This document shows, piece after piece, positions 3,680 to 55,441 of a stretch of 64,000 bases of DNA. Every line of letters starts with the position of its first letter. Within the stretch, counting starts at the first letter, position 1. The position numbers and the translations under genes are program-made. The notes beneath the pieces are model-generated. The model made no database searches, was not told the DNA's origin, and saw nothing but the letters and a program-made list of their open reading frames with translations. The stretch is from Myxococcales bacterium. GTDB taxonomy: Bacteria; Myxococcota_A; Polyangia; Polyangiales; DASUME01. The stretch spans positions 8,832,001 to 8,896,000 of the forward strand of contig JASGJH010000001.1 of assembly GCA_047601445.1 (NCBI GenBank), given 5' to 3'.

Positions 3680-4414
3680 ATGCGCATCGGATCACGTTTC
3701 TGCGGGCCGCCCGCGAGTGGCAATGGGGGCTACACGGCGGGTTGCGTGGCGCGCCTGATCCAGGGCCCCGCCGAGGTCACGTTGCGTGCTCCGCCGCCGC
3801 TCGACACGGAGCTCACGCTCGAGTCGCGCGACGGCGGCGCGGTGTTGCTGGGGCCCGATGGAGGTCTCATCGCGGAGGGCAAGCCCACGACGTTGGAGCT
3901 CGTGCTGCCGGCCAGCGTCGGTTGGGACGAAGCGCGAGCTGCCACCGCGCACTACGTGGGCTTTCGCGAGCATCCCTATCCGGGTTGCTTCGTGTGCGGC
4001 CCACGACGTCCTGCGGGTATCGCTCCCGGCCTGGGCTTGTACCCCGGGGCAGTCCGCAGCCCGTCGGGGCAAGCCGTGGTCGCCGCGCCGTTTCGACCGC
4101 CAGCCGATCTGGCGGACGACCAGGGCCTGCTGAAGCCCGAGTTCGTGTGGGCCGCGCTCGATTGCCCGTCGTGGTTCGGCCACGCGGCGTACCTCGAGCA
4201 CGTACCCAAGATCCTGCTGGGGCGCCTGGCCGTCCACATCGCCCGGCGCCCTCGGGCAGAGGGCGCGAGCGCGGTCGGGGAGGCATGCGTCGTGATGGGT
4301 TGGAGCCTCGGTCAGGAGGGGCGCCGTATTACATGCGCCTCAGCGCTATATGACGAGCGGGGCGACTGCCTGGCCTGGGGCAAGGCGGTCTGGGTCGAGC
4401 TCAAATCCGCGTGA
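3680..4414 (+). CDS. Double hotdog-fold (thioesterase-like) protein
   Basis: RFCGPPASGNGGY, CFVCG and VWAALDCP motifs; GGAGG RBS before ATG 3680. Confidence 0.65.
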   Translation: MRIGSRFCGPPASGNGGYTAGCVARLIQGPAEVTLRAPPPLDTELTLESRDGGAVLLGPDGGLIAEGKPTTLELVLPASVGWDEARAATAHYVGFREHPYPGCFVCGPRRPAGIAPGLGLYPGAVRSPSGQAVVAAPFRPPADLADDQGLLKPEFVWAALDCPSWFGHAAYLEHVPKILLGRLAVHIARRPRAEGASAVGEACVVMGWSLGQEGRRITCASALYDERGDCLAWGKAVWVELKSA

Positions 4415-4607
4415 AGGCTTCGAAGCGGGTCTCGCTGGGGCGAGAGGGGCGCGGGGCCCTTCCACCCGGGTTCCGCCGGCGCTCGATCCAGTCGCGGGTA
4501 GCATCCCTAAGTGCGGTGAACAGCTGAGGAATCATCCAGAACGCCAGGAAGGCGAACAGGCACAGGGTGTAAGCGTAGAACAGGGCGAAGTCCAAGTTGA
4601 ACGTCAT
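4401..4607 (-). CDS. Small (68 aa) single-pass membrane protein
   Basis: AAGGAG RBS upstream; hydrophobic N-terminus FALFYAYTLCLFAFLAFWMI followed by a basic tail. Confidence 0.55.
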   Translation of the reverse strand: MTFNLDFALFYAYTLCLFAFLAFWMIPQLFTALRDATRDWIERRRNPGGRAPRPSRPSETRFEAFTRI

Positions 4608-4911
4608 GGGGACTCTCCTTTACGCGACGCAATGCGTCATTGGGGGGTACAGGAACGCGCTCACGGCAACCGCAGCAGACACAGGGAGTGATGACTCGTT
4701 GGGGACCTGGGCTAGGGCTACGTCAGCGAACTGATTACGATGTAATACCGGCTTGAGACAGGCGCAAGCCCCTGTAGGGAAAAAGTTCATCGTCGGTGTG
4801 GAGATTCACCGAGGCTGCACCGAAGGCACGGCGCCGCATGCCGGGCGCGACGATGAGCTCAGGGCTCGGTTCGTGCGGGCGTCGACGCGAGGAGGGGGGC
4901 CGCGCGGGGAG

Positions 4912-5784
4912 TCAGATGGACTCGATGCGCACGGCAGCGCCGAACGAGCGGGCGGCGTAGCCGAGGAATGTGTACCGGCACCGGGTTTCCTCGACGAACT
5001 CGAAGAACGCCTTGTACTCGTGTTCCTCGTAGCTCGGGTAGTTGAAGAACTCGTCGAAGAGAATCACCGAGCCCTTCACGAGACGTGGTCGCAACGCGTT
5101 CAAGACGAACTTGGCCGAGGAGTACAGGTCGCTGTCGATGTGGACGAAGGCGGCGGGGGCCGCGACCTGATCGAGAAAAGGCAGCAGAGTCTGGTCGAAC
5201 CAGCCGACGTGCAGCCGAACGTTCTCGCCTACTTGAGGCAGGGCGCCCGCCGTGGAGAACGCGCCCTTGCCACAGTCGCGCCAGCTCTCGGGGAGTCCTT
5301 CGAAGGAGTCGAAGCCGTGTACCTCGCGATCGGGTACGAGGGAGGAAATGATGTTGATGGTGCCGCCGTGATAGACGCCGAACTCTGCGAAAAAGCCGTC
5401 CAACGCGCGGGCCTCTTCGACACAGCGCTTCAGCAGTTCCACCGGAGTCGCATAGGCAGGTGCGTCCGGGCAGTGACGTAGCGCGAACTCCGCGGACGCA
5501 CGGGTGGCGAGCTCGTACTTGGTGCGCTCGATGTCTCCGACGCGAAGCGCCGCGTAGTCATTGGCGTGAGCGTCGTCGTAAGGACGCACGTTCGCTGCGT
5601 GCCAGAGCTTGCGCTGCATATCGGGTGACGAAAGGACTCGATGCACTTCGCCCGTGACGTCGGGGGAGGGCACGGCCTTGCGAACCACATCGGCGATGGC
5701 GCCCTGGACCTTGGGGTGCTTGAGGACCTTGACGGCGAGCTTGGTGAGGCGTCGCTCGATGAAGCTGGACATTCTTGCGACCAT
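4912..5784 (-). CDS. TylF/MycF-family class I SAM-dependent O-methyltransferase
   Basis: EFGVYHGG, GFDSFEGLPE, HIDSDLYSS and FDEFFNYP motifs. Confidence 0.85.
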   Translation of the reverse strand: MVARMSSFIERRLTKLAVKVLKHPKVQGAIADVVRKAVPSPDVTGEVHRVLSSPDMQRKLWHAANVRPYDDAHANDYAALRVGDIERTKYELATRASAEFALRHCPDAPAYATPVELLKRCVEEARALDGFFAEFGVYHGGTINIISSLVPDREVHGFDSFEGLPESWRDCGKGAFSTAGALPQVGENVRLHVGWFDQTLLPFLDQVAAPAAFVHIDSDLYSSAKFVLNALRPRLVKGSVILFDEFFNYPSYEEHEYKAFFEFVEETRCRYTFLGYAARSFGAAVRIESI

Positions 5785-50988: not shown

Positions 50989-51657
50989 ATGCGGCGTAGC
51001 GAAAAAGCGGAGCGAATCCGCCTCCAGCTCGACGAGCTGTTCCCCGAGGTGCCGATCCCCCTCGATCATCGCGATCCCTTCACGCTGCTCGTGGCGGTGG
51101 TGCTCTCGGCCCAGACCACCGACGCCCGTGTGAACTTGGTTACTCCTGCGCTGTTTGCCCGTGCTCCCACGCCCGAGGCCATGAGCCATCTGAGCGTCGC
51201 GCAGATCCTGGCGTTCATCCGCACCTGCGGGCTGGCCCCATCCAAGGCCAAGAACCTGTTGGCGCTCTCGCAACTCTTGCTGGAGCGTCACGCGGGAGAG
51301 GTGCCGAGGACCTTCGAGGAGCTCGAGGCGTTGCCCGGGGTCGGACACAAGACGGCGAGCGTGGTGATGTCCCAGGCCTTCGGCGTGCCTGCCTTCCCCA
51401 TCGACACGCACATCCATCGGCTCGCCGAGCGCTGGGGGCTCTCGGACGGCAGCAACGTCGTGAAGACGGAGCGGGATCTCAAGGCGCTCTACGCCGCGGA
51501 GCATTGGAACAAGCTGCACCTGCAGTTCATCTACTTCGGGCGCAGCTATTGCCCCGCCCTGCGCCACGACGCGGTCCGCTGTCCTGTCTGCAGCTGGGCC
51601 GCCCCCTCGCGTCGGCGCGGCGCAGCGAGCAAGCGGCGAGTTGCCGACCGCGCGTGA
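50989..51657 (+). CDS. nth: Endonuclease III
   Basis: LVAVVLSAQTTD, HhH LPGVGHKTA, PIDTHIHR. Confidence 0.93.
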   Translation: MRRSEKAERIRLQLDELFPEVPIPLDHRDPFTLLVAVVLSAQTTDARVNLVTPALFARAPTPEAMSHLSVAQILAFIRTCGLAPSKAKNLLALSQLLLERHAGEVPRTFEELEALPGVGHKTASVVMSQAFGVPAFPIDTHIHRLAERWGLSDGSNVVKTERDLKALYAAEHWNKLHLQFIYFGRSYCPALRHDAVRCPVCSWAAPSRRRGAASKRRVADRA

Positions 51658-51715
51658 GCCGCGCTACATGGTGCGAAGCCAGCGCGAAGCGCGCGTTGGA
51701 ATTGGAGAGCGACAC

Positions 51716-52156
51716 ATGGCAACGCTACGTGAAATGGTGGCCGACCCCGGCAAGAGGCAGCAGGTCGTGGACGACGCCATCAAGGTCATCGACGCGGAGG
51801 TCTCCGACAAGGGAGGGCTCGGGGGCATGGCCATCAAGGCGGCCTACTCGATGGCGAAGGGAGTCGCGCCCGGCATCATCCAGAAGGTGCTGAACAACAT
51901 GCTCGACGACCTGCTCGGCGCGCTGCAGCCCTACTTCGACGAGTCCAAGGCCAAGAAAGCCGACTTCAAGAATCACGTGGTGGCCAAGGGATCCGACGTC
52001 GCCAACTCGCTCTTGGCGGTCACCGACGCCCGCGCCTCCAGGGCCTCTGGCGGGGCGCTCAAGAAGGGCTATGAGAAGTTGCGCCCGACGGCCCAGAAGC
52101 ACGTGGAGCAGGCCTTGCCGCGGCTGGCCGATCTCGTCACCAAGCACGCCAACTGA
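51716..52156 (+). CDS. Conserved hypothetical protein (DUF6918-like)
   Basis: DAEVSDKGGLGGMAIKAAY...LLAVTDAR...YEKLRP.A..HVEQALPRL; GGAG RBS. Confidence 0.65.
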   Translation: MATLREMVADPGKRQQVVDDAIKVIDAEVSDKGGLGGMAIKAAYSMAKGVAPGIIQKVLNNMLDDLLGALQPYFDESKAKKADFKNHVVAKGSDVANSLLAVTDARASRASGGALKKGYEKLRPTAQKHVEQALPRLADLVTKHAN

Positions 52157-52181: not shown

Positions 52182-52391
52182 GCACTTCGTGAGCGAAGCG
52201 AAACTCGCGCAGGGACCCGGCGCTGTGAGCGAAAGCGAACCTCGCGGTGGGGTGGGACCCGGCGCAGCTTCGCTGCGACGGGCGGGGAGGTCGCGTGACC
52301 TCCCCGTGCAACAGCTGCGACGGGCGGGGAGGTCGCGTGACCTCCCCGTGCAACAGCTGCGACGGCGGGGAGGTCGCGTGACCTCCCCGTG
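52182..52391 (+). repeat. Dispersed structured repeat, copy 4, with the terminal hairpin triplicated at 42-bp period
   Basis: Units start at 52272, 52314 and 52356 (GCTGCGACGGGCGGGGAGGTCGCGTGACCTCCCCGTG); identical linkers. Confidence 0.92.
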
Positions 52392-52392
52392 A

Positions 52393-52965
52393 CTAAGTCC
52401 AGTCGAGTACGTAGGTGAGCACGTTGTTGTGCATCCACGGGCGCTCTTCGAGGCGCACGGACGGTGCCTTGCCACCCGCGCTCTCCACCACCTCGAGTGA
52501 CCAGCCCATGATGTTGTGCCCCACGCAGGCCGACATATCCGGGAAGCCCGCCAGGTGAATCCGCGCGCCCTTGCGCTCCGGGTTCGCCTCATCTGCGGGC
52601 AACTCGGTCACGGTGATCTCGCCGAAGTTGAAGAGCTCGCGCCAGCGACTGCCCATGTTGTGCAGGGACTCGAGGGGCTTGCCCGGGAGGAACACGCGCT
52701 CGGGTTGCTCGTTGATCAGCGCGCGCGCCGAGGCGCGTCCCATGTTCTGCGCAGCCGCCTCGCTGCCGTCGAACACATAGCGATGCACGATTTGCAGGAG
52801 GCTCTCGAAGACCTGCAGCGAGTACCAGGTAGTCGGAGACACCCGTTTGCGCATCAGGTCCTGTTCCCAGGGGCCGAACTCCGGCAATTGATGGGTGCGT
52901 CGGTGGGCTCGCAATAGCCGCACCACGCCCACCAGATTCGTCCCCCGGACCAGCCGCTCCTTCAT
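52393..52965 (-). CDS. Hypothetical protein (myxobacterial DUF2378/V4R-like ligand-binding fold, tentative)
   Basis: VRGT..., WY, MGRASA, FNFG, GW...VES.GG pattern and terminal W; family call is weak. Confidence 0.5.
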   Translation of the reverse strand: MKERLVRGTNLVGVVRLLRAHRRTHQLPEFGPWEQDLMRKRVSPTTWYSLQVFESLLQIVHRYVFDGSEAAAQNMGRASARALINEQPERVFLPGKPLESLHNMGSRWRELFNFGEITVTELPADEANPERKGARIHLAGFPDMSACVGHNIMGWSLEVVESAGGKAPSVRLEERPWMHNNVLTYVLDWT

Positions 52966-52997: not shown

Positions 52998-54254
52998 TCA
53001 ACTCGACGACCCCGCGTGCGCGGGCAGGTTCGGGCCGAGCGAGAAGCGCCGCTCCTCGAGGCCGTAGGCCTTGGGGTTCAGCTCCAGCACCGTGTGCAGC
53101 GGGATGCTCACGTGCGGAATCTCCTCGGGTTCTCGGCCCAGAAGATAGCCGTAGATGGCTCGTAGCACCGCTTGATGGCTGATCACCAGCACTGGGCGTT
53201 GCTGGCGCTCCAGCTCGAGCACGACCGGTTCCACCCGTTGGATCACGTCCATGTAGCTCTCGCCGCGTGGGTAGCGATAGCCGAGCTTGTCGCGCGCGCG
53301 CGCTTTCCAGTCGTCGGGGAAGTGCTCCTTGATCTCCTGGTACGTCATGCCGTCGCAGACGCCCGCTTCGATTTCGTTGAGCGCTCGCCACTGCAAGGTC
53401 TGGCGGCCCAGGATCTCGGCGGTCTCGTGGGTTCGCACCAGCGTGCTCGTCCACACCTCCACGCGGCCGTGGGGCGCGATGCGCTCGTCGTAGAAGAGCT
53501 TGAGGTTCTTGGCGTACTCGCGGCCGAGCTCGGAAAGCTGCGTGTTGCCACCGATGCGTTCCACCACGTTGAACTCGGCTTGACCGTGACGGGTGAGCCA
53601 GATGGGGCGCGGCACGTTGTGCAGGTTCACCAGGAACGACACCAGGCGCGAGGGCAGATAGCCCGTGATCTGGTTGACGATCACCTGTCGGCCCACGTCG
53701 ATCAGTTTGATGTAGCTGCCTTCGCTCTCGTCCACCGGCTGGTAGACCTTGGCGTAGTGCTCGATGCGGGCGCGGAAGTCGGCCACCGCCAGATCCGGAT
53801 CGATGCCGGCGTAGTCGGGCGAGTCGAGCTTGGTGGCGCGCACGTTGGCTTCCACGGTGGCTTCGTCGCACAACGACTCCACGAAGATGACGTTCATGCC
53901 TTCGCGCTCGCAGCGCTCCTGGATCAGGCGTCGGCGCTCGCGCGTGCTGTTGGTGGCGTCGTAGATGGCGACCTCGCCGCCGCGCTGGAACCAGCTCACC
54001 ATGTCGTCGAGGGCCATCAGCGCCACGCGGGTACGCTCGCGCACGCCCTCGGGGTTGAGCGGATCGAAGAAGTCGTGGCTGCGCTGGCTGCCCAGGTGCT
54101 CGCGCCGATAGTTGCCCACGTTGAAGAGGCGGGTCGGGTGCCCGAGCCAGTTGAGGTAGCGCGTGATCTTGCGCGCCACGTAGGTCTTGCCGCGAGCCGG
54201 CAGGCCCACCATCACGATGGCGTGGGTGGGGTTGTCGCCGTGAAGGACTGCCAT
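52998..54254 (-). CDS. Bifunctional 6-phosphofructo-2-kinase/fructose-2,6-bisphosphatase (PFKFB-like)
   Basis: VMVGLPARGKT, FNVGNYRR, DATNSTRERR, SPDY; His-phosphatase RHG, LNEIEAGVCDGMTY, YRYPRGESY, ELERQ, SHQAVLR. Confidence 0.93.
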   Translation of the reverse strand: MAVLHGDNPTHAIVMVGLPARGKTYVARKITRYLNWLGHPTRLFNVGNYRREHLGSQRSHDFFDPLNPEGVRERTRVALMALDDMVSWFQRGGEVAIYDATNSTRERRRLIQERCEREGMNVIFVESLCDEATVEANVRATKLDSPDYAGIDPDLAVADFRARIEHYAKVYQPVDESEGSYIKLIDVGRQVIVNQITGYLPSRLVSFLVNLHNVPRPIWLTRHGQAEFNVVERIGGNTQLSELGREYAKNLKLFYDERIAPHGRVEVWTSTLVRTHETAEILGRQTLQWRALNEIEAGVCDGMTYQEIKEHFPDDWKARARDKLGYRYPRGESYMDVIQRVEPVVLELERQQRPVLVISHQAVLRAIYGYLLGREPEEIPHVSIPLHTVLELNPKAYGLEERRFSLGPNLPAHAGSSS

Positions 54255-54403
54255 GCTCGAAGGATAGGAGGGAGAAACGCCGCGCGCACCTTGGGGGCGA
54301 GCGGGCGAGGGGGGCGTCGGAGTGAATCGGGTAGGGCGGTGTAACCATCGGCGTGACGCGGAACGGCTGACCTCGCACGATCCACGTCAGACGGCCCCTT
54401 CAA

Positions 54404-55441
54404 TCAAAGCCCTGCATGAGGCCGCTCGAGCGTCGAGAGGTGTTCGATCACGAGCTCGCCCATGCTGCGGCAGCGGCGAAAGCTCGCTAGCCCATAGTGC
54501 TCGGCCATCTCTTCGGCGAGCTGGTTCACATGCTCGGCCGGCGCAATGTCGTCCTGGGCCATCACCGACAGCAGATCCTCGAGCCGCCCGCCCGAGGACT
54601 TCACGCGGCGGCGGATCAAGGAGCGCTCCTCCAGCTGATACTGCCGCACCGTCTCGCGCGACATGCACTTGATGCCGAGGAAGATGATGGGATTGTTCTG
54701 CTTGAAGTACTGGGGCAAGTACACCTGGCGCTTGCCCTCGTAGCTCTGCTGGTCGAAGTCGATGGCCCGCAGGCGATAGGTGGTCTCCTCGAAGTCGGGC
54801 GTGATGTCGATCACGAAGTTGGCCGAGTGCATGTCGCCGAGCAGGCGCAAGAAACAGCGCTCGTTGAACTTCACGAACTCCTTCGCCAGGCGCACTTCGT
54901 CGAGGTGTCGGTCGCTCAAGTAGCTGCGGATGAACATGTTGCCCGGGATGCCCGAGATGTGCTCCTCCACCAGCGTGTCACGGTCGTATAGGAACGTGAT
55001 CACGTTCGGCGACAACATGTGCTCGAGTTCCAAACCATAGAGGCGCGAGGCATCGGCGCGCTTGACGTAAAAGTAGTCGAAGTTGTCGTTGAGCGTGTTG
55101 ACGATGCGGACCCGAAAGGGCTGCGTGTTGCCGTAGGTGCACAGGTCGACTCGATCGACCACCAGGTGCTCGAAAGCGTCGGTCTCGCCGCCCGTCTTCA
55201 TCTGGGCGTAGATCTGCATCAAGCCGTCGCGGACCTCGCGTTGATCTTGTGCCGAGTACAGCACGCTGACCCACAGCGTGTCGCGGCCCGCCTTGTCGTA
55301 GAGGGGGATGGCCTGCTCGTAGCGCAAGAGGTCGTCGTAGCGCACCGGGAGGCGCACGCTGCGGTCGTACTGGGTCAGGTACGCGGCGAAGGCGGGCCGG
55401 GCGGCATAGATGCGTTTCTTACGCGAAATCAGGTGGGGCAT
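54404..55441 (-). CDS. Conserved hypothetical protein with HipA/PI3K-like kinase motifs
   Basis: YVKR, LLGDMHSANF (DxHxxN) and AIDFDQ. Confidence 0.6.
   Translation of the reverse strand: MPHLISRKKRIYAARPAFAAYLTQYDRSVRLPVRYDDLLRYEQAIPLYDKAGRDTLWVSVLYSAQDQREVRDGLMQIYAQMKTGGETDAFEHLVVDRVDLCTYGNTQPFRVRIVNTLNDNFDYFYVKRADASRLYGLELEHMLSPNVITFLYDRDTLVEEHISGIPGNMFIRSYLSDRHLDEVRLAKEFVKFNERCFLRLLGDMHSANFVIDITPDFEETTYRLRAIDFDQQSYEGKRQVYLPQYFKQNNPIIFLGIKCMSRETVRQYQLEERSLIRRRVKSSGGRLEDLLSVMAQDDIAPAEHVNQLAEEMAEHYGLASFRRCRSMGELVIEHLSTLERPHAGL

Follow-up and report, generated by a model that had tools for sequence, protein, structure and literature searches.

The closest described systems are the animal 6-phosphofructo-2-kinase/fructose-2,6-bisphosphatases (PFK-2/FBPase-2), the bifunctional enzymes PFKFB1-4, represented by structures of human PFKFB3 (2axn/6ibz), PFKFB2 (5htk/5hr5), the rat testis enzyme (1bif) and the human liver enzyme (1k6m). 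Their N-terminal region (about 25-40 aa in animal chains, by alignment offsets) and C-terminal tail carry regulatory phosphorylation sites. A second type, the F2KP-type enzymes of plants, stramenopiles and Rhodelphis, such as those of Phytophthora ramorum (P0162), Cantina (P0276), Rhodelphis (P0124) and Stylosanthes (P0125), has an N-terminal CBM (AMPK1_CBM/CBM20) and long N-terminal extensions, reaching 586-751 aa in total. Control by fructose-2,6-bisphosphate (Fru-2,6-P2) is still called eukaryote-specific in PMC12873801, and is described as absent from bacteria except one Desulfovibrio (PMC9721465). Our literature searches, in which phrases containing '2,6' were not searchable as written, returned nothing on bacterial or myxobacterial PFKFB, including that of Sorangium, and no assay or Fru-2,6-P2 measurement for any bacterial member. 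Here we describe a PFK-2/FBPase-2 gene in a 64,000-nucleotide stretch (the window) of the chromosome of a Myxococcales bacterium (Table 1). A conserved synthase/hydrolase of this kind, under purifying selection, spans a bacterial phylum, contrary to the eukaryote-only descriptions.

Table 1. Features of the PFK-2/FBPase-2 gene and its product (window coordinates; residue numbers are those of the encoded protein)
Feature	Position	Strand	Details
PFK-2/FBPase-2 gene	52998..54254	-	single ORF, ATG start, 418 aa
6PF2K kinase domain, residues 10-214	53613..54227	-	Pfam PF01591, 258.5 bits (cut-off 27), E 5.6e-77
FBPase-2 (histidine phosphatase) domain, residues 218-400	53055..53603	-	His_Phos_1 PF00300, 133.2 bits (cut-off 21.7), E 1.2e-38
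Kinase-site positions: Walker A G17-T24; F6P/ATP R50, R51, R74, D99, T101, R107, K142, R163, Y167	53613..54227	-	PFKFB3 alignment
Phosphatase-site positions: R222-H223-G224, E294, H360, R274, Y305, R319, K323, Y334, R365	53055..53603	-	alignment
-10-like hexamer TATCCT, candidate leaderless promoter	54261..54266	-	6 nt upstream of ATG

Pfam analysis revealed that the 6PF2K domain is fused N-terminally to the histidine-phosphatase domain in one chain, which is also the domain content and order of PFKFB1-4. The sequence-only reading had described a complete two-domain protein with a set of PFKFB-like motifs, and every one of them was found in the translation: GLPARGKT (17-24), FNVGNYRR (44-51), DATNSTRERR (99-108) and SPDY (145-148) on the kinase side, and RHG (222-224), LNEIEAGVC (292-300), YRYPRGESY (326-334), ELERQ (347-351) and HQAVLR (360-365) on the phosphatase side. 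The best solved relative is human PFKFB3 (E 1.3e-120 over residues 8-401). PFKFB3, PFKFB2 and the rat testis and human liver enzymes all match in one collinear stretch (residues 8-405, E 1.3e-120 to 1.2e-118, 45-49% identity), and the bisphosphatase domain structures 1c7z and 1fbt match the C-terminal half (E 2e-57). The AF2 model of the 418-aa protein (pLDDT 92.2, pTM 0.90) superposed on PFKFB3 and PFKFB2 in Foldseek with TM 0.92-0.93 and rmsd 1.4-3.5 Å, and ranks 1-26 were all PFKFB chains (TMq 0.90-0.93). The bacterial histidine phosphatases PhoE (1h2e), PspA (4ij5) and CobC (6nru) share the fold and RHG chemistry of the C-terminal half, but are only 21-27% identical to it (E 1e-7 to 1e-12) and lack both the kinase domain and the Fru-2,6-P2 pocket residues. 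Judged from its sequence and modelled fold, the protein is thus confirmed as a full-length homologue of the eukaryote-type bifunctional PFK-2/FBPase-2, its similarity being far beyond chance.

The Pfam domain limits leave only 9 residues at the N-terminus and 18 at the C-terminus, so that, unlike the animal enzymes, the protein is without their N-terminal region and C-terminal tail. AMPK1_CBM, which is present in P0124, P0130, P0136, P0140, P0150, P0162 and P0276, is absent from it, and neither regulatory tails nor a CBM were found on this bifunctional enzyme. Unlike the F2KP-type enzymes, whose core is 46-55% identical, the bacterial PFK-2/FBPase-2 proteins consist of the core only (about 390-430 aa). 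For the myxobacterial protein, a dimer interface through the kinase domains, as in the animal enzymes, is tentatively predicted: the homodimer scored 0.56 against 0.00 for the best of three controls, a prediction that possibly reflects memory since like complexes have been solved. Among solved structures, 20 of 30 same-chain pairs and 1 of 23 single-chain proteins attained this mark. Separate runs gave at least 55% contact agreement and a partner pLDDT of at least 84, placing the predicted interface at kinase-domain residues 189-210.

Alignment with PFKFB3 revealed that the Walker A motif, the F6P-binding arginines, the RHG histidine, the glutamate and the second histidine are shared with the animal enzymes. 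K23, T24, R50, R51, R74 and D99 correspond to PFKFB3 K47, T48, R74, R75, R98 and D124, and T101, R107, K142, R163 and Y167 to T126, R132, K168, R189 and Y193; the roles of these kinase-site positions we take to be those given in the PFKFB structure literature. Among 108 bacterial rows, 22 of the 26 catalytic and substrate positions are invariant, the variable ones being R74 (83 R, 25 L), T24 (98 T, 10 S), R107 (107 R, 1 Q) and Q361 (100 Q, 5 R, 3 N). Kinase-site positions are kept in 83-108 of the 108 rows, while every row retains R222, H223, E294, H360, R274, Y305, R319, K323, Y334 and R365. Arg274, which occupies the position of Ser302 in PFKFB3, distinguishes the protein from that isozyme and leads us, by comparison with isozyme data, to expect substantial phosphatase activity. 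Comparison with five genus orthologue rows gave dN/dS values of 0.04-0.23, indicating purifying selection over the whole length; orthologue rows L009 and L015 gave identical values and are treated elsewhere as one distinct orthologue.

The gene is native to its chromosome. Its GC-rich codon usage, likened to that of its neighbours in the sequence-only reading, was verified (GC 0.659 and GC3 0.895, with GC3 at 0.86-0.93 for five genes beside it), the GC of the whole window being 0.65-0.71. Since proteins of protists, fungi and animals are 49-59% identical to its product, it might be thought a eukaryotic fragment mis-joined into a bacterial contig, the chimera that the earlier reading had named as its own refutation. 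This explanation is hardly credible and was excluded on checking: the host genome is a single Polyangiales-type chromosome of 9,502,601 bases (9.50 Mb) in one contig, the same flanking genes occur in four related assemblies, where the downstream order gene-DUF6918-nth recurs (4/80 related loci), the complete chromosomes of Sorangium and Minicystis carry orthologues, the GC3 matches that of the neighbouring genes, and the gene has neither introns nor eukaryotic-type extensions. No conserved operon partner was found, the neighbours being common to only 2-4 of the 80 related loci, all of them near relatives. A second family seemingly present in 80/80 loci was rejected, as it proved to be shadow ORFs antisense to the PFKFB gene, merged with Sorangium Ser/Thr kinase ORFs. 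None of 72,556 plasmid records had a match spanning at least 80% of the protein.

The sequence-only reading had called bacterial homologues rare, which did not hold. The family was found in 28/61 genomes of the order, in 82/401 genomes sampled across the phylum and, among species-representative genomes, in no fewer than 570 confirmed stretches, and NCBI already names the Sorangium, Sandaracinus, Minicystis and Byssovorax relatives 6-phosphofructo-2-kinase/fructose-2,6-bisphosphatase. The 418-aa protein therefore belongs to a bacterial family already known and annotated, whose spread in Myxococcota is wide and vertical-looking. The annotated homologues of Sorangium cellulosum So ce56 (L026), Sandaracinus amylolyticus (P0052), Minicystis rosea (L041) and Chondromyces apiculatus (L068) are 57-60% identical, have the same length class and architecture, and fall in the same clan in every tree; they differ in genomic neighbourhood, with no shared neighbours in 76/80 loci. 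Among 30 looked up of the best 150 50%-identity representatives, 15 had a eukaryotic source or name and one was from Myxococcota. The named neighbours of the divergent, bacterial-looking P0186 are all Myxococcota, and the top ESM Atlas cluster is from Myxococcota, followed by fungal and chordate PFKFB.

The family was not found in 319/401 sampled genomes of the phylum, which indicates that it is dispensable for many relatives, and none of 14 well-known control genomes carries it. Such patchiness is what a neutral, functionless relic of transfer from a eukaryote could leave, yet that explanation is very improbable: it is contradicted by the dN/dS values, by stops in none of the 82 over-cut-off matches, by near-constant presence in some families (26/26 in f38 and 8/9 in f1), and by the native codon composition and conserved active sites.

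Candidate targets for Fru-2,6-P2 were sought among the FBPases and PFKs of the host. The genome encodes a single class I FBPase of 346 aa, at 7700641-7701681 on the + strand of the contig, which scores 495 bits with NF006778 (cut-off 368) and matches the E. coli FBPase 2gq1 at E 1.7e-111; a class II FBPase (GlpX) was not found in it. Its only two PF00365 genes encode single-domain proteins (347 and 400 aa), each scoring above the NF002872 cut-off for the bacterial ATP-PFK subfamily. Unlike animals, the host is thus without a two-lobed PFK-1, whose duplicated half would hold the Fru-2,6-P2 allosteric site; according to PMC12873801, the allosteric sites of eukaryotic PFK are formed by this duplicated half. 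Since both host PFKs are single-domain, PFK activation in the eukaryotic style is less likely. F26BP is a competitive active-site inhibitor of mammalian and Leishmania class I FBPases (PMC5639204), and the literature searched contained no account of whether a bacterial class I FBPase responds to Fru-2,6-P2. Class I FBPase occurs in 27/28 PFKFB-positive and 27/33 PFKFB-negative genomes of the order (54/61 overall) and a PFK homologue in 61/61, so that neither separates carriers from non-carriers.

Based on these data, the gene probably encodes a working core-only PFK-2/FBPase-2, with Fru-2,6-P2 acting most likely on the class I FBPase. The N-terminal P-loop kinase domain would phosphorylate fructose-6-phosphate at O-2 with ATP as donor, and the C-terminal histidine-phosphatase domain would convert Fru-2,6-P2 back to F6P via a phospho-His223 intermediate, the protein most likely forming a head-to-head homodimer via its kinase domains, like animal PFKFBs. 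Competitive inhibition at the active site of the only class I fructose-1,6-bisphosphatase of the genome is the most likely effect of Fru-2,6-P2, which would then serve as a brake on gluconeogenesis. As phosphorylation-site tails and an N-terminal CBM are missing, the balance of kinase and phosphatase would have to depend on metabolites or on expression.

It is unlikely, though less so than the relic, that the enzyme is effectively monofunctional or shifted in specificity in vivo, for instance acting chiefly as a phosphatase on sugar bisphosphates or as a kinase/phosphatase on a different phosphosugar, and that Fru-2,6-P2 is not a regulator. A fungal member of the family (P0129) is named plain fructose-2,6-bisphosphatase by its source, and the absence of regulatory tails, of conserved partner genes and of the eukaryote-style PFK target would fit such an enzyme. 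What speaks against it is that the F6P/ATP positions of the kinase and the positions of the phosphatase are kept across the 108 bacterial rows, with purifying selection over the whole length. We presume that losing one activity usually shows as loss of catalytic or substrate residues, as in yeast Pfk26 and Fbp26, and this counts against monofunctionality. The preferred reading, a bacterial Fru-2,6-P2 system run by a bifunctional enzyme, would be directly testable in culturable myxobacteria, given the conservation of the synthase/hydrolase across the phylum.

In unrooted trees, the Myxococcota copies all group in a single clan that lies among eukaryotic ones. The tree constrained to this clan lay 73.5 log-likelihood units above the free quick search (p-AU 0.979), and the stem of the clan is short (0.069). 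The nearest eukaryotic clans in both FastTree and IQ-TREE include the CBM-bearing F2KP-type enzymes of plants, stramenopiles and Rhodelphis. The phylogeny with eukaryotic and bacterial homologues that the sequence-only reading had proposed as a check thus gave, in unrooted form, a single Myxococcota clan. Entry into or exit from Myxococcota through a single inter-domain event is the best explanation. Named eukaryotic rows cover Amoebozoa, Opisthokonta, Archaeplastida, stramenopiles, Rhizaria, Discoba, Breviatea and ancyromonads, a breadth that points to presence in LECA. Two rootings were tried and set aside. Minimum root-to-tip variance placed the best roots on long terminal branches and ranked the bacterial stem 219/239, which is uninformative, the branches of the bacteria just being short. 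When four bacterial histidine phosphatases served as outgroup for the phosphatase domain, they joined individual long eukaryotic rows (supports 3-87), a long-branch pattern from which no rooting conclusion was drawn.

Invention of PFK-2/FBPase-2 and Fru-2,6-P2 signalling in the Myxococcota lineage, with passage to a proto-eukaryote, is conceivable but doubtful. A root on the short Myxococcota stem would make the Myxococcota clan sister to all eukaryotes; the bare core would be the bacterial form, and tails and CBMs would be eukaryotic additions. If so, the enzyme would be one of the Myxococcota-derived genes counted among LECA ancestries in phylogenomic papers of 2026, not one taken from a eukaryote. 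PMC13468126 and bioRxiv 10.64898/2026.05.08.723234 propose Myxococcota as a major source of genes for the earliest eukaryotes, and PFK-2/FBPase-2 is unmentioned in the main texts of both and in four supplementary files of PMC13468126. A rooted phylogeny of the family would therefore bear on the source of a hallmark eukaryotic regulatory circuit.

The sequence-only reading had also given the gene its own leaderless-type promoter, a claim that was upheld in part. No Shine-Dalgarno-like run precedes the ATG, a scan for the sigma-70 consensus returned 0 sites, and the -10-like hexamer beside the start was not seen in the Sorangium loci. TANNNT nevertheless lies 6-8 nt before the ATG in 5/5 distinct genus-level orthologues, the rest of whose upstream DNA is unalignable, and among 102 distinct loci it occurs 5-9 nt upstream of a candidate start in 23, against 0-12 at six control offsets. 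A leaderless-type start is thus plausible from the pattern of the upstream DNA.

Every motif that the sequence-only reading had listed for a complete, eukaryote-type two-domain PFK-2/FBPase-2 (PFKFB) was present in the 418-aa translation, in which Pfam recognized 6PF2K (E 5.6e-77, residues 10-214) followed by His_Phos_1 (E 1.2e-38, residues 218-400); NCBIfam, which holds no specific model for the PFKFB family, returned sub-threshold histidine-phosphatase families only. Among all solved structures the top matches were human PFKFB3, PFKFB2, and the rat testis and human liver enzymes (E 1.3e-120 to 1.2e-118), each aligned in a single stretch over residues 8-405. The AlphaFold2 model (54-row alignment; mean pLDDT 92.2, pTM 0.90) retrieved PFKFB chains at Foldseek ranks 1-26 (TM 0.90-0.93, rmsd 1.4-3.5 Å). 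Twenty-six positions, whose roles we take to be those of the PFKFB structural literature, were transferred from PFKFB3 by sequence alignment and scored in 108 bacterial rows. Of these, 22 are invariant; they include, in the kinase domain, the Walker A Lys as well as D99, K142, R163 and Y167, and in the phosphatase domain R222-H223-G224, E294, H360, R274, R319, K323 and R365. The variation at T24 (98 T/10 S), R74 (83 R/25 L), R107 (107 R/1 Q) and Q361 (100 Q/5 R/3 N) is conservative or resembles alignment shifts. Arg274 aligns with a Ser of PFKFB3, and by analogy with the animal isozymes substantial bisphosphatase activity is predicted. Unlike the animal isozymes, with their N- and C-terminal regions, the bacterial protein is a bare core, and it lacks the AMPK1_CBM module carried by seven related eukaryote-type proteins. 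Two-copy structure prediction favoured a homodimer through kinase-domain residues 189-210 (contact agreement between runs at least 55%, pLDDT at least 84), scoring 0.56 against 0.00 for the best of three controls. A score this high is obtained for 20 of 30 proteins with a solved homo-pair and for 1 of 23 solved as a single chain; PFKFB dimers are already solved, so the predictor may have reproduced known structures. Compared with five genus-level orthologue rows, which all begin with M(A/T)VLHGDN and are 418 aa long, dN/dS (Nei-Gojobori) was 0.04, 0.15, 0.15, 0.12 and 0.23, two rows (loci L009 and L015) giving identical values. The gene encodes a real and intact PFK-2/FBPase-2 that is under selection and probably active; the literature searched yielded no assay of a bacterial PFK-2/FBPase-2.

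The window occupies 8.83-8.90 Mb of one 9,502,601-base contig in a genome that is 98.7% complete and carries a single copy of PF01591. The PFKFB gene (GC 0.659) has a GC3 of 0.895, bearing out the claim that its GC-rich codon usage matches that of its neighbours (0.86-0.93 in five genes), and no compositional step was seen across the window. Its closest named relatives are Polyangiales/Polyangiaceae records. The downstream order of the 190-aa gene, DUF6918 gene and nth was found again in 4 of 80 related loci, with the first two still paired, and the upstream 345-aa gene in 2 of 80; loci sharing neighbours are all close relatives (81-93% protein identity). The sequence-only reading had allowed for a chimeric contig, which is excluded by the single long contig, the native composition and the flanking genes shared with close relatives. 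For the 345-aa ORF, neither Pfam nor NCBIfam gave a match, even at a threshold of E 1. Allowing one mismatch, the genome has 96 occurrences of the 22-nt palindrome of the tandem array (58 exact) versus 0 for a reversed control; they are often arrayed at a spacing of 42 or about 100-107 nt and resemble a family of REP-like elements in intergenic DNA.

Coordinates of the PFKFB gene, its neighbours and related features
Feature	Location	Strand	Remarks
PFK-2/FBPase-2 ORF	window 52998-54254	-	ATG start, 418 aa, single ORF
345-aa ORF	window 54404-55441	-	directly upstream of PFKFB gene; same position in related loci, E 1e-195 to 1e-218
190-aa ORF	window 52393-52965	-	faint DUF2378 match only, E 0.04
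Tandem array	window 52272-52391		2.9 copies of 42-nt unit, 22-nt palindrome in each; between convergent 190-aa and DUF6918 genes
DUF6918 protein	window 51641-52156	+	E 2.1e-48; adjoins 190-aa ORF
347-aa PFK	L011:1366-2409; G000:C1 (contig of the window) about 5.918 Mb	-	GGNGS, ASTIDND
Sorangium loci with PFKFB gene and divergent kinase-like ORF	about 3890-5263 of each of L020-L034	-	PFKFB gene about 44-57 kb from chromosome-record start
FBPase/PFK cluster, family f22	G051:C1 8065901-8070775
FBPase/PFK cluster, family f22	G030:C65 942-6854
FBPase/PFK cluster, family f22	G043:C101 24733-37452

The ATG lacks a preceding Shine-Dalgarno-like run; the hexamer TATCCT ends 6 nt before it. A TANNNT ends 6-8 nt before the ATG in all five distinct genus orthologues (TATCCT, TATTCT, TAGACT, TATAGT and TATGCT), the remaining upstream DNA of which is unalignable; among 102 distinct loci, 23 have TANNNT ending 5-9 nt before a candidate start, with 12, 5, 4, 3, 4 and 0 at six control offsets. 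A leaderless-type start is plausible from these sequence patterns. The earlier proposal that the gene has its own leaderless-type promoter agrees with this motif and the missing Shine-Dalgarno run, but a consensus sigma-70 scan yielded zero sites.

Passages of the literature place Fru-2,6-P2 (F26BP) in almost all eukaryotes and not in bacteria except Desulfovibrio desulfuricans (PMC9721465, citing Rider 2004), and call PFK regulation by it apparently eukaryote-specific (PMC12873801, citing Michels & Rigden 2006). Of 8,000 candidates scored in a word-indexed protein collection, 5,679 matched at E ≤ 0.001; the best 120 of these were all about 390-450 aa, and the named ones (Polyangiaceae, Sorangium, Sandaracinus, Minicystis, Byssovorax or Myxococcota) bear the NCBI name 6-phosphofructo-2-kinase/fructose-2,6-bisphosphatase. 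The PFKFB family exceeded the Pfam cut-off in 28/61 genomes of the same order and 82/401 sampled across the phylum; families f38 (26/26) and f36 (8/9) were near-saturated at E ≤ 0.001, and f35 (3/34) and f41 (0/12) had weak P-loop matches only. A one-genome-per-species scan gave at least 599 pattern matches, at least 570 of them confirmed by tblastn; among the best 80 are 14 complete chromosomes of Sorangium as well as Minicystis rosea and Chondromyces apiculatus. No full-length copy was found in 72,556 plasmid records. These counts make the statement that bacterial homologs are rare wrong for Myxococcota, in which the family is widespread and already annotated, the window's gene adding one member. 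Six of the best 80 loci (L015, L038, L058, L067, L085 and L086) have record titles of Pseudomonadota, Burkholderiales, Rhodobacterales or Enterobacteriaceae; their PFKFBs are 56-83% identical to the window's, as in the Polyangia records listed around them, and the titles may be generic or belong to mis-binned contigs. In the Sorangium loci a Ser/Thr-protein-kinase-like ORF lies divergently 0.5-0.7 kb upstream of the PFKFB gene, a lead because phosphorylation controls the animal PFKFBs, though these genomes encode very many kinases of this type.

Myxococcota are counted as one of the chief bacterial ancestries behind the genes of LECA in the main texts of a Nature paper of 2026 (PMC13468126) and a 2026 preprint (bioRxiv 10.64898/2026.05.08.723234); PFK-2/FBPase-2 is absent from these texts and from four supplementary files of the former. 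Searched without a profile, 1.84 billion representatives clustered at 50% identity gave 1,283 matches at E ≤ 1e-30. Among 30 of the best 150 looked up, one was from Myxococcota and 15 had a eukaryotic name or source (Phytophthora, Cantina, Rhodelphis, Stylosanthes, Pygsuia, Ploeotia, Dermamoeba, Reticulomyxa, an MMETSP transcript, Acytostelium, Andalucia, Nutomonas, Sodiomyces, duck PFKFB3 and one EukProt entry). For the trees, which left out Desulfobacterota homologues, 31 rows from Myxococcota genomes of 15 families were added, and 49 of 270 proteins and 2 of 110 loci (query coverage <88%) and 14 near-duplicate rows were removed. In the FastTree tree of 135 rows the bacterial ones all fell within a single region, adjoining stramenopile and Archaeplastida CBM-bearing forms. 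An IQ-TREE quick search (LG+C20+F+G4 PMSF; 121 rows and 406 columns) united 29 of the 30 bacterial genome rows and the protein P0186 in one clan (SH-aLRT 94), the remaining row being weakly attached elsewhere; the clan fell inside a group without resolved order with the Amoebozoa, stramenopile-CBM and Archaeplastida-CBM clans. When the 31 bacterial rows were constrained to stay together, the log-likelihood of the tree was 73.5 units above that of the free search (p-AU 0.979). One bacterial clan, and with it one inter-domain event, fits these data. The phylogeny proposed earlier thus yielded a single Myxococcota clan, but direction needs a root, on which two rooting attempts were both uninformative.

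Two PFK-family genes in the window's genome, of 347 and 400 aa, are each single-domain and above the cut-off of NF002872, the bacterial ATP-PFK subfamily. The 400-aa paralogue has GGDGS and PKTIDND; we take these motif positions to affect catalysis and the choice between ATP and PPi, so that sequence does not decide which phosphoryl donor either PFK uses. The extra allosteric sites of eukaryotic PFK-1 are ascribed to duplication in a passage of PMC12873801, a route unavailable to single-domain PFKs. A single class I FBPase is encoded in the genome, with the E. coli enzyme as its closest match (E 1.7e-111) and mammalian FBPase at about E 1e-93; class II GlpX was not found there. F26BP is described in part of PMC5639204 as a competitive active-site inhibitor of the class I FBPases of mammals and Leishmania, and by analogy this inhibition could extend to a bacterial enzyme of the class. 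Among genomes of the order, class I FBPase occurs in 27 of the 28 positive for PFKFB and also in 27 of the 33 negative for it, and PFK homologues in 61 of 61; the predicted co-occurrence with PFKFB is observed, yet has no discriminating power. Clustering of class I FBPase and PFK genes, not seen in the window's genome, was observed in three genomes of family f22, where the two lie 4-12 kb apart on one contig.
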